NCBI GenBank assembly: GCA_963718595.1
Contig: OY970365.1
Coordinates: 965,994-1,029,993 of the forward strand
Reading direction: 5' to 3'
DNA: 64,000 bases
DNA from: an uncultured Thermoleophilia bacterium
GTDB taxonomy: Bacteria; Actinomycetota; Thermoleophilia; Solirubrobacterales; 70-9
Positions 542-48,904 of the stretch are shown here, one piece after another; within the stretch, counting starts at the first letter, position 1, and each line of letters opens with the position of its first letter. Below the pieces are notes generated by a model, which ran no database searches, was not told the DNA's origin, and saw nothing but the letters and a program-made list of their open reading frames with translations. A program made the translations under genes and the position numbers.

Positions 542-1423
542 GTGGAGCCGTTTACCGTCATCGGCGTCCCGATCGACTCGGTCGGTCGCGGCGGCGGCGC
601 GGAGCTGGGACCGCTGGCGCTGCGCCAGCTCGGCCTGATCGAGGCCCTGGACGCTCGCGACGAGGGTGACCTCGCGTTGCGGATCCACGGCGAGGAGCGC
701 GATCCCGCCACCGGGATCCTCGCCAGCGACGAGGTGCTCGCCGCCACGACGGCGATCCGTGCGCGCGTCGCCAAGCTGGTCAGCCTCCGGCGCCGGCCCT
801 TGCTCCTCGGCGGCTGTTGCGCCCCGCTGCCCGGGGCGCTGGCCGGTGCCCGCGACGCGCTCGGCCCGATCGGCCTCGTCCACTTCGACGGCCACGCCGA
901 CCTCTACGACGGCGAGACCTCGACCAGCGGCGAGGCGGCCGACATGCCGGCCGCGGTCGCGCTCGGCCTCGGGCCCGAGGCCTGGGTACAGGTCGCCGGC
1001 GGCGCCTCCGTCGGCCCCCAGCACCTGGCCCTGGTCGGCTACCGCGACCGCGAGGAGTCGATCGCGGACGGGATGCGCCAGCCGGAGACGCTCGCCCCGG
1101 CACCGATCCTGCGACCCCTCGACGTCCTCCGCGCCGCCGGACCCGGCGCCGTCGCCACCGAGCTAAGCGGCCGCCTCGGCAGCGCCATCCCCTTCTGGCT
1201 GCACGTCGACGTCGACGTCCTCGACCCCGGCATCTTTCCGGCCACCGACTACCTGATGCCCGGCGGCGCCAACTGGGAGGAGGTCGCCGAAGTACTCGCA
1301 CCGCTCTTCGCCTCCCCCGCCCTGATCGGCGCCTCGATCGGTTGCTACAACCCGGAGAAGGACCCGGGCGGCAAATGCGGCGAGCAGCTGGTCGAGGTTC
1401 TGGGCGCTGCTGCGCCGGGCTAG
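542..1423 (+). CDS. arginase/agmatinase/formiminoglutamase-family ureohydrolase
   Basis: Track ORF 383..1423 trimmed to in-frame GTG 542 (VEPFTVIGVPIDS...). Ureohydrolase metal-binding blocks VHFDGHADLYD and LHVDVDVLDPG are present. Confidence 0.8.
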   Translation: MEPFTVIGVPIDSVGRGGGAELGPLALRQLGLIEALDARDEGDLALRIHGEERDPATGILASDEVLAATTAIRARVAKLVSLRRRPLLLGGCCAPLPGALAGARDALGPIGLVHFDGHADLYDGETSTSGEAADMPAAVALGLGPEAWVQVAGGASVGPQHLALVGYRDREESIADGMRQPETLAPAPILRPLDVLRAAGPGAVATELSGRLGSAIPFWLHVDVDVLDPGIFPATDYLMPGGANWEEVAEVLAPLFASPALIGASIGCYNPEKDPGGKCGEQLVEVLGAAAPG

Positions 1424-1432
1424 ATCTGAATG

Positions 1433-2119
1433 CTTCGGGGGGGTTGGTGAGAGGGGTTGGGGGTCTCTCGTGCTCGCTGGATTTTTCGCCCGGACTCTCG
1501 GATAGCTCTAAGACACGGACAAGCGAAAAATTAACGCCGCTGTGCGCGAGAGACCCCCAACCCCTCCCCTCAGAGCACCTCGAAGATTCCGCTAGCTCCC
1601 AGGGTTCGATCGTTTGCAGTTTGGATCGCTCAAGGGTTCGCTCGTTTGCTCTTGAGATCGCTCCAGGGTTCGCTCGTCTGCCGGGAGAGATCGAGCCCGC
1701 TCCCAGCTGGTGAGTTGCCGGTTAGTTCCGCATAGCGGTAACAACCGGCAACTCGTGAAGGAGGTTTTTGGATGAACCTTGGGGCGGATTGGGCCCTCGG
1801 CTTTCTCTTGAGAGGAGATTGCGTCCCTTGGTCGTCTATCTAGAGAGATTCCGTCCCTTGGCGTCTCTTTGCAGAGATGCCGGACCCTGGGCGTCCCTGT
1901 CTAGGGATCACGGACCCTGGTCCGTTCGTCAGCTTCGAGATGGTCCCGGTTCGCGAGGGACGGTGGGGGTGTCCTCCGTACGAGCGGCGTTAATTTTTCG
2001 CTCGTCCGTTCTCGAGAGCTTGCTGTTGTTCGGGGCGAAAAATCCAGCGAGGGAGGAGGACACCCCCACCGTCCCTCCCGGCCCGAGGGCCGGGGAGAAG
2101 TGCAGCGGCCCGAGGTTGG
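1433..2119 (+). repeat. ~690-bp non-coding composite palindromic repeat, copy 1
   Basis: Near-identical over long stretches to 42340-43055 in the same orientation. Internal parts: hairpin 1451-1566, three forward CCAGGGTTCG-type units (1599, 1631, 1663), central hairpin 1712-1754, four reverse units (ending 1831, 1861, 1890, 1920), hairpin 1955-2077. Confidence 0.9.
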
Positions 2120-2152
2120 GGGGATGCGGCGGCCCGAGGTGCGCTCGCTACC

Positions 2153-2428
2153 TCAAAGCGCCTCGATCTTCGCCGCCAGCTCGAAGTCCGACGCCGTCAG
2201 GCCGCCCTCGGAGTGACTCGACAGCGAGACGGTCACCTCGTCCCAGGAGATCTCGAGATCGGGATGGTGGTTCATCTCCTCGGCCGGCGCGACCAGCTTG
2301 TCGACGAAGGCGACCGAGCCGACGAAGTCGCCGCAGGCGAACTCTTTGACGATCGCCTCGCCCGCGCGGCTCCAGCCGGGCAGGTCGGCGAGCTTGGACT
2401 CGATCTCCGCGTCGCTGAGCAGTGCCAT
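2153..2428 (-). CDS. pterin-4-alpha-carbinolamine dehydratase (PCD/DCoH family)
   Basis: 91-aa ORF MALLSDAEIESKLADLPGWSRAGEAIVKEF...EEMNHHPDLEISWDEVTVSLSSH. Size and the NHHPD/W..V block are typical of PCD. Confidence 0.9.
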   Translation of the reverse strand: MALLSDAEIESKLADLPGWSRAGEAIVKEFACGDFVGSVAFVDKLVAPAEEMNHHPDLEISWDEVTVSLSSHSEGGLTASDFELAAKIEAL

Positions 2429-13088: not shown

Positions 13089-13135
13089 CCGAGTTGCCGG
13101 TTATTTTCGGATAGCGAGAAGAACCGGCAACTCGG
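13089..13135. terminator. 14-bp-stem hairpin CCGAGTTGCCGGTT-N19-AACCGGCAACTCGG, a solo copy of the central hairpin of the 0.7-kb repeat
   Basis: Lies 4 nt after the stop of the last ABC gene. The same arms occur at 1712-1754 and 42618-42660. Confidence 0.6.
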
Positions 13136-42339: not shown

Positions 42340-43055
42340 TTCGAGGGGGTTTGGTGAGAGGGGTTGGGGGTCTCTCGTGCTCGCTGGATTTTTCGCCCGG
42401 ACTCCCGGATAGCTCTCAAGAGCGGACAAGCGAAAAATTAACGCCGCTGTGCGCGAGAGACCCCCAACCCCTCCCCTCAGACCTCCCGAAGAGATCCGCT
42501 AGCTCCCAGGGTTCGCTCGTTTGCAGTTTGGATCGCTCCAGGGTTCGGTCCTCTGCACTTTTGGCTGGCTCCAGGGTTCGATCGTCTGCCGGGAGAGATC
42601 GAGCCGCTTCAGCTCGTGAGTTGCCGGTTAGTTCCGCATAGCGAGAACAACCGGCAACTCGTGAAGGAGGTTTTGGATGAGCCTTGGGCGGATTGGGCTC
42701 TCGGCCTTCCTCTTGAGAGAGAGATTGCGTCCCTTGTCGTCTATCTAGAGAGATTCCGTCCCTTGTCATCTCTTTGCAGAGATGCCGGACCCTGGTCGTC
42801 CCTCTCTAGGGATCCCGAACCCTGGGCGTCCCTGTCTAGAGATGTCGAACCTCGTTCGTCAGCTTCGAGATGGTCCCGGTTCGCGAGGGACGGTGGGGGT
42901 GTCCTCCGTACGAGCGGCGTCCTCATTTTTGCGCTGCAGCGGTATCTCGGACGGTGGGAGCACTCCCCAGCAAAAATCCCAGCGAAGGTAGGAGGACACC
43001 CCCACCGTCCCTCCCGGCCCGAGGGCCGGGGAGGAGCGCAGCGGCCCGAGGTTGG
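42340..43055 (+). repeat. ~715-bp non-coding composite palindromic repeat, copy 2
   Basis: Same order of modules as 1433-2119: hairpin 42358-42473, forward units at 42506/42538/42571, central hairpin 42618-42660, five reverse units (ending 42736, 42765, 42795, 42825, about 42853), hairpin 42885-43013. Confidence 0.9.
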
Positions 43056-43062
43056 CGAGACC

Positions 43063-48487: not shown

Positions 48488-48631
48488 GGAGGGGTGGTGG
48501 TGGCCTCTCCGGGAATTTGTCGTGCCCCCTGAAGGGGGCTACTCCCTCATGTCGAGCCCGCCTATGGCGGGCAGAAATAAGGAAAGGGCCCTTACGGGCG
48601 ACATTCCCGGAGAGGCCACCACCACCCCTCC
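48488..48631. repeat. 144-nt hairpin with a perfect 29-bp G-rich/C-rich stem enclosing three mini-hairpins
   Basis: Arms ggaggggtggtggtggcctctccgggaat / attcccggagaggccaccaccacccctcc. Interior contains gccccc-tgaa-gggggc, gcccgcc-tat-ggcgggc, gccc-ttac-gggc. Confidence 0.85.
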
Positions 48632-48776: not shown

Positions 48777-48904
48777 GGCGGTGTCGGGGGTGGGTGCGTT
48801 CAGCCTCCACAACTCGTTGCATATATCCGGCGCCGCCAGGCGCCGTCTAGGTTGCACCGGCTCTGCCGGTGCTAGGCGCAAACGCACCCACCCCCGACAC
48901 CGCC
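48777..48904. repeat. 128-nt hairpin with a perfect 24-bp G-rich/C-rich stem enclosing two mini-hairpins
   Basis: Arms ggcggtgtcgggggtgggtgcgtt / aacgcacccacccccgacaccgcc. Interior contains ggcgcc-gcca-ggcgcc and gcaccggc-tct-gccggtgc. Abuts the acyltransferase stop codon. Confidence 0.85.

Follow-up and report, generated by a model that had tools for sequence, protein, structure and literature searches.

The two large hairpins at positions 1451-2077 of the window (the whole stretch of 64,000 nucleotides analyzed here) are the inverted ends of a directional, non-coding mosaic repeat of 0.55-0.68 kb. We give roughly even odds (probability about 0.5) to the reading that this repeat is a non-autonomous palindromic mosaic of the REPIN/BIME kind, with the hairpins as its inverted ends and with a putative partner factor.

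Structure of the hairpins and of the composite repeat

The window belongs to a single-contig genome (G000; 2.86 Mb, 69% G+C) of an uncultured soil Solirubrobacterales bacterium. One copy of the repeat fills the gap of 730 nt that separates the TAG stop of an arginase-family gene from the stop of the pterin dehydratase gene (Table 1). The first-pass annotation had described the interiors of the two terminal hairpins as inverted paralogues closed by stems that are different but individually perfect, and both descriptions were borne out. The interior of the left hairpin, h1 (76 nt), matched the reverse complement of the interior of the right hairpin, h2 (77 nt), in 62 of 79 columns (78%), compared with 49 of 86 columns when the two interiors were aligned on the same strand, and every arm base of both hairpins was paired. 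When aligned, the stems read GAGGG--GTTGGGGGTCT-CTCG in h1 and GAGGGACGGTGGGGGTGTCCTCC in h2. Three substitutions and three inserted bases distinguish them, and each of these changes is mirrored on the partner arm. The word terminal, used for the hairpins in that annotation, holds only in the sense that a larger repeat has them as its inverted ends.

Folded either as RNA or as DNA, both hairpins were far more stable than shuffled sequences (z = -7.8 to -9.5), and none of 200 shuffles was equally stable. A repeat search recovered both arm pairs, together with a long inverted repeat (1446-1541 / 1983-2078) that was 72% complementary. We built a covariance model, R1, from 11 hairpin variants; it scored h1 at 100 bits on the plus strand and h2 at 114 bits on the minus strand, which for h2 is the sense strand of the model. 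Sense and antisense scores were about 45 bits apart, indicating that the module has a polarity, which is set by its asymmetric core. Each hairpin module consists of two inverted, G-rich arms of 19-23 nt, mostly of the form GGAGGG-N7-CCCTC(C) and each dyad-like in itself. The arms enclose the core, a conserved asymmetric sequence of about 75 nt with an A/T-rich inner helix.

Table 1. Positions of the composite repeat, its parts and its neighbors (window coordinates; genome coordinates in the last row)
Feature	Position	Strand	Details
Flanking gene, arginase family	542-1423	+	Pfam PF00491, E = 8e-28
Leader (~29 nt)	1424-1450	+	Consensus GGCGGATTTCGTTCGAGGGGGTTTGGTGA; directly 3' of the arginase-family TAG stop
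Left hairpin h1	1451-1566	+	Arms 1451-1470 / 1547-1566, 20/20 bp perfect
h1 inner A/T-rich helix	1481-1489 with 1523-1531		ATTTTTCGC with GCGAAAAAT
h1 apical loop	~1491-1518		Variable; pi = 0.17 among 20 copies
Three 32-nt sub-repeats	1599-1695	+	CCAGGGTTCG-type; from repeat search; 1-3 in other copies
Central 43-nt hairpin	1712-1754	+	GAGTTGCCGG...CCGCATAGCGG...CCGGCAACTC; fold z = -5.3 / -7.5
~30-nt sub-repeats	1796-1920	+	CGGACCCTGG-type; opposite in orientation to the left sub-repeats; 1-5 in other copies
Right hairpin h2, A-type interior	1955-2077	-	Arms 1955-1977 / 2055-2077, 23/23 bp perfect
Tail	2078-2152	+	Three units of ~24 nt (GGCCCGAGG-type) at 2080, 2107 and 2131
Flanking convergent gene, pterin-4a-carbinolamine dehydratase	2153-2428	-	Pfam PF01329, E = 1e-28
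Second composite copy in the window	42347-43059	+	h1 42358-42473; h2, B-type interior, 42885-43013
C/Y solo hairpins (examples)	G000:C1:82648-82769, 585895-586007, 644347-644463, 2189496-2189624		

Between and around the hairpins, the composite is built from smaller modules. Every full copy has a conserved leader (pi = 0.19), which is missing at the empty orthologous site in G016, another genome of the genus. The central hairpin is nearly invariant (pi = 0.007), and variant copies of it carry compensatory stem changes. It is followed by a GGAGG/ATG motif and then by the inverted units of about 30 nt. We considered whether the small ORF at 1772-1843, which lies behind GGAGG, is a gene; single-base indels among the copies shift the frame downstream of the motif, thus it is not conserved coding sequence. 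In the window copy the tail runs up to the pterin dehydratase stop, TCA (TGA on the reverse strand), and its units number 2-4 across copies. Tandem clusters of GGCCCGAGG were found in the genome only beside copies of the element, and the tail too is missing at the empty site. The interior of h2 comes as either of two types, A or B, across copies. The central hairpin module (GAGTTGCCGG...ATAGC...) was also seen alone, at window positions 13091-13134 and at about eight other places in the genome.

When the whole gap was compared with the genome, it matched about 25 places, of which 19 were full-length (80-93% identity) and several were shortened; seven solo hairpins were among the matches. The first stem closes every one of the approximately 25 left ends, and the second closes every right end. 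The difference between the left and right stems therefore did not arise in the window copy but was inherited from a master composite. At one copy (genome position 1780220), compensatory 2-nt indels were present in both arms.

In total, 58 hairpin modules of A/B type and 23 of C/Y type were found in the genome. One subfamily carries CCCGGTAGGGGT at the inner end of the stem, and A-type arms (GAGGGGTTGGGGG...) lack the GTAG/CGTC tag. The C/Y subfamily, whose members were gathered through the interior motif only (CGTCTTGCACTTTTT...AAAAAGTTAAGCG), comprises 23 solo hairpins with 23 different closing stems, 16 of which contain at least 19 perfect pairs. In one C/Y hairpin, the stops of a convergent gene pair, TAG and CTA, are base-paired to each other within the stem. 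We also noticed a second family, class X, of hairpins of about 145 nt in about 20 copies, mostly arranged as inverted pairs about 130 nt apart. One member lies in the window at 48488-48631 (genome 1014481-1014624). The conserved interior of class X contains the mini-hairpins CCCCTAAAGGGG and GCCCGCCTATGGCGGGC, and each copy is closed by a different perfect stem of 24-31 bp. A giant hairpin with a perfect 24-bp stem lies close by at 48777-48904 (genome 1014770-1014897), and its interior is unlike that of class X.

Covariation of the arms and the kind of constraint

The R1 hairpin was detected in 49 of the 60 other genomes of the genus that were searched, and in none of 80 genomes that represent 37 further genera of the order. 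The genomes were assembled from metagenomes and belong to uncultured soil Solirubrobacterales/Thermoleophilia. Plasmid and phage collections contained no match to the element. Covariation was measured on 119 hairpins from 17 genomes, with statistics that ignore the tree and kinship. Standard pairs were formed by 96.1% of stem cells, compared with 43-58% when the partners were slid, and double changes were observed in 18 of the 19 closing-stem pairs. The covariation score was 0.56, against 0.09-0.12 in the slid controls. None of 500 shuffles reached the observed number of paired cells, of changes on both sides, or the observed covariation score; two measures based on type counts were reached by 1 and 21 of the 500 shuffles. 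Since the alignment had been fitted to the model, the arms were also compared without any alignment. The 119 hairpins contained about 75 distinct arm sequences, the median perfect run was 20 bp, and 87 of the hairpins had at least 19 perfect pairs. Related genomes and paired hairpins are not independent, and the p-values quoted in this work are indicative only. These results supported the earlier claim that both arms have changed together. Frequent unpaired substitutions in further copies had been named as the sign of missing pressure on pairing, and what we observed was the opposite.

The composition of the pairs was informative about the level at which the constraint acts. Among 2009 cells of the closing stem, 1952 (97%) were Watson-Crick, 12 were G.T, 16 were A.C and 29 were other mismatches. 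Wobble pairs thus made up 0.6% of the cells, and G.T was no commoner than A.C. A selected RNA helix would tolerate G.U, so that the lack of a wobble preference points to a palindrome maintained at the DNA level. The first-pass annotation had proposed either selection for a stem, as RNA or as cruciform DNA, or hairpin-templated repair. The coupled change of the arms on which this proposal was based stands, and the RNA variant has become less likely, given the absence of a G.T bias and the flipped interiors described below.

An RNA-level explanation would hold that the hairpins serve as 3' UTR terminators, exonuclease barriers or RNase III sites, and that the stems covary because the RNA folds. 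The elements begin 2-60 nt past stop codons and fill gaps between convergent genes, at resident as well as orthologous loci their stems and cores are conserved and their apical loops vary, and REPs have often been proposed to act as RNA (PMC3733652). Hairpins next to a gene 3' end, counted over the 119 hairpins, were in the sense orientation in 66 cases and antisense in 10 (binomial p = 3e-11, with non-independent cases). This sense rule, however, is largely a trivial consequence of the geometry of the composite, whose ends are inverted and each face outward. It fails for the C/Y solos, which occur in both orientations relative to the abutting gene, and for the composites of genome G014, in which the left hairpin is flipped. 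The C/Y solos likewise have a flipped interior. The second copy in the window, moreover, adjoins a kinase gene at its 5' end. Neither a terminator with a U-tract nor a promoter was found, G.U on the sense strand was not favored over A.C, and a search of Rfam gave no family match, only sub-threshold chance hits to microRNA precursor models. The confinement of the family to one genus also speaks against a function in RNA, and we regard this explanation as rather unlikely.

We then compared sequence diversity along the repeat. Among the 20 full copies, the mean pairwise difference (pi) was 0.000-0.004 in the arms and core of h1 and in the 5' arm of h2, and 0.015 in the 3' arm of h2; the single-copy spacers gave 0.06-0.10 and the apical loops 0.17-0.30. 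Changes private to one copy were found at 1 of 1720 stem sites versus 15 of 2401 spacer sites (p = 0.004), and no private double change was seen in the stems where about five were expected. In one hairpin that is orthologous between G000 and G014, the arms were identical at 40 of 40 positions and all nine differences in the interior were apical, and the flank was identical at 91 of 124 positions (73%). The type-1 stem was unchanged between G000 and G016. These patterns of substitution show that the stem sequence at resident loci is under purifying selection, and so is the core.

This result bears on the possibility that the pairing is kept up purely by mutation, one arm being copied onto its partner by template switching within a strand or by gene conversion between the arms, while the hairpin itself is under no selection. 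Such a process would account for the strictly Watson-Crick pairing without wobble bias and for indels that are mirrored on both arms. A flipped interior is the product expected when the arms of an inverted repeat recombine with each other, and it implies that such recombination has taken place. At site 1358296, the stems of G000 and G014 differ at many positions and both are perfect, indicating that replacement or rapid coordinated change also occurs. Unbiased conversion alone, however, would give approximately neutral change in the stems, including double changes, and this does not fit stems that are conserved in sequence among the 20 copies, at the orthologous G014 locus and in G016, nor an unpaired core that is conserved as well. 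Of the templated repair proposed earlier, the mirroring of the arms therefore remained as support, while unbiased repair as the sole cause fitted poorly. We consider a purely mutational upkeep improbable. Across the family, it is the Watson-Crick complementarity of the arms as DNA that is conserved, together with the core.

Insertion sites and the search for a partner enzyme

The genes around the copies were called with a crude ORF/GC3 caller. By these calls, 78 of the 392 convergent gene pairs of G000 have no intergenic gap, and 34 pairs overlap by 4 nt, with CTAG at the empty junctions that we read. TAG made up 39% of the stop codons of the genome in the same crude calls.

The site orthologous to that of the window copy is empty in G016, G052, G022 and G020, where the two stops overlap or adjoin. 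In G024 and G008 it contains a solo hairpin of another subfamily, the 5' arm of which includes the last codons of the gene. G046 has a mini-hairpin at this site, and G014 has its own version of the composite. Some further orthologous sites in G016 are empty (e.g., TAG-GACTGGC-TCA), and one has the leader and the central hairpin only. In a G014 copy (G014:C64:23100-23850) orthologous to G000:1599800, the right hairpin is exactly missing and CACCCTCCC, a short remnant of an arm, is left between conserved flanks, as expected for slippage or excision across a hairpin. Many orthologous sites in G014 and G016 hold versions specific to the genome; this would require either concerted evolution or repeated replacement, and it counts against the REPIN/BIME-like reading. 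Comparison of these orthologous sequences showed apparent gain, loss and replacement of elements at gene-end junctions.

Mutually unrelated hairpins also occupy one convergent-gene junction in different species (G000:C1:483072; G016:C1:1713020-1713200). The occupant in G016 is a perfect palindrome of 44 nt (CCCTGTCGACTTAATCACGCACGTGCGTGATTAAGTCGACAGGG); a different hairpin is found in G014 and other inserts in G015, and G010 is empty there. G015 further carries, at G015:C1:1225990-1226250, two palindromic GCCGACGGGCCGAAAAG elements of about 47 nt where G000 has a C/Y hairpin.

A comparison of filled with empty sites at five loci revealed no consistent target-site duplication. Matching YTAR tetranucleotides flank only two composites (TTAG/TTAG and CTAG/CTAG), both in non-convergent contexts, and TAG/TAA stops were mildly over-represented at the left junction (13 of 17 versus 48% expected, p = 0.03). 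On these two cases and this p-value, a YTAR target preference was too weak to be adopted. We also rejected the idea that the variable outer stems are inverted target duplications; no such sequence was present at the empty orthologous sites, and the outer stems of the Y subfamily are homologous to one another and have diverged with compensation. The elements may have inserted into pre-existing palindromes; the 44-nt palindrome of G016 stands at one such site.

The composites were oriented 10 plus to 4 minus below about 1.6 Mb and 3 plus to 9 minus above it. The strand bias of genes switches near 1.5 Mb, and the GC skew is unclean. A replication-strand bias was not accepted, as the count of 19:7 relative to the inferred replichores (p = 0.03) is based on small numbers and the C/Y solos showed no bias.

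We searched for an enzyme that could be the partner of the repeat. Y1_Tnp (PF01797, Y1/RAYT) was matched in none of 41 genomes of the genus, G000 among them, and the same search gave matches in 6 of 14 control genomes. DDE_Tnp_1 was absent from G000 and from the hairpin-rich G014 and G016, and across the genus its occurrence does not follow the abundance of hairpins. No rve, TnpB-domain or IS110 match was found in G000, and a BLAST search of the genome against itself revealed no multi-copy coding repeat resembling an insertion sequence. Three matches to tyrosine recombinase were present in the genome.

In G008, a 991-bp IS982-like insertion sequence with DDE_Tnp_1 (G008:C1:435988-436978) separates the two hairpins of a composite. 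This insertion sequence carries perfect 19-bp inverted repeats of its own (CTAGATGGTTGATTCCACG) and is present in at least five further copies in G008. This 1.5-kb hairpin pair was considered as a candidate for an autonomous partner, and was rejected because the inverted repeats of the transposase element mark it as a nested insertion.

With no RAYT, no target duplication and no autonomous relative found, we assign the repeat to neither the REPIN nor the MITE family. It is conceivable, though we hold it to be doubtful, that the hairpins constitute a genus-specific, self-propagating system of perfectly paired DNA hairpins without a known transposase. Such a system would be copied by a new structure-specific enzyme or by hairpin-templated or template-switch copying, and would be retained as insulators of convergent genes with overlapping stops. 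Several unrelated families of hairpins in G000 (the A/B hairpins of R1, C/Y and class X) behave alike in this respect, with conserved interiors and a perfect stem that is unique to each copy.

A classical MITE, in which the arm pairs would be terminal inverted repeats bound as double-stranded DNA by a DDE transposase, is very unlikely: the inverted ends, multiple intergenic copies, presence/absence polymorphism, the dyad-like form of each arm (GGAGGG..CCCTC) and the YTAR flanks and TAG/TAA excess noted above would suit it, but no general target duplication was found, the five transposase families tested are missing from G000, the only transposase seen between hairpins is the nested one in G008, the non-palindromic center of the arms stays complementary too, and the 23 different stems of a single genome could not all be read sequence-specifically by one protein.

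Relation to known repeats

We return to the non-autonomous REPIN/BIME-like repeat as the preferred reading. Against it stand the negative outcomes of the searches for a partner enzyme and for a consistent target-site duplication. According to this reading, the folded hairpin, as single-stranded DNA or as a cruciform, would be the recognized form, and a putative genus-specific factor would copy or maintain the elements. The matching of the arms would be kept by purifying selection, probably with arm-to-arm templated correction or recombination. Two old hairpin sub-lineages would have been joined in a master composite, which would then have been copied about 25 times. The elements would settle where insertion is tolerated in a compact genome that leaves few bases between gene ends, and the hairpins may secondarily act as terminator- or insulator-like elements.

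In the way it works, the repeat comes closest to REPINs. In both, two inverted short palindromic units and a spacer form one hairpin of about 70-120 nt, and both have tens of extragenic copies, vertical persistence in a lineage, conserved ends, a variable spacer and compensatory changes; in REPINs, the two sides often carry compensatory changes (PMC3116915). Unlike in REPINs, no RAYT/Y1 HUH gene accompanies the hairpins in the 41 genomes of the genus, and the spacer includes a conserved asymmetric core, whereas the spacer is the least conserved part of a REPIN. The hairpins described here are also built into a directional 0.65-kb mosaic that also contains sub-repeats, the central hairpin and the tail, and their arm sequences are far more diverse.

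Similar to BIMEs, the composite contains palindromic units in alternating orientation mixed with other short motifs, and it is placed after genes, between convergent or co-directional ones. Its units, however, are 3-4 times larger, and it is restricted to one genus of uncultured Solirubrobacterales. The lack of a dedicated transposase has a precedent in the CGTC REPs, a REP family for which none is found either (PMC3733652).

The composite is also comparable to hairpin MITEs such as Correia/NEMIS, ERIC and BOX, in being non-coding and intergenic, in having inverted ends and in being potentially co-transcribed with its neighbors. BOX elements are modular, with a variable number of internal units, and the varying number of sub-repeats in the composite is similar. 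It differs from hairpin MITEs in that there is no target duplication or cognate insertion sequence, that each end is a complete hairpin, and that the stem sequence varies widely between members with pairing kept.

A further parallel is provided by the attC sites of integrons. These are imperfect palindromes of similar length that are recognized as folded single strands, so that structure is conserved over sequence, and they stand directly after open reading frames. The hairpins share with them the conservation of structure rather than of sequence, the length and the position directly after ORFs, but they are dispersed between syntenic chromosomal genes and do not form cassette arrays.

With about 75 near-perfect stems of 19-25 bp around one core and with no wobble bias, these hairpins are among the cleanest natural cases of covariation between the arms of a DNA hairpin. 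They make a system for separating selection on folded DNA from templated correction. The lineage is without RAYT, and G000 is without the five transposase families tested, which also makes it a system for asking how REP/REPIN-like repeats persist and spread when their usual enzyme is missing. For the annotation of compact actinobacterial genomes, the finding means that such elements can be entire intergenic regions.
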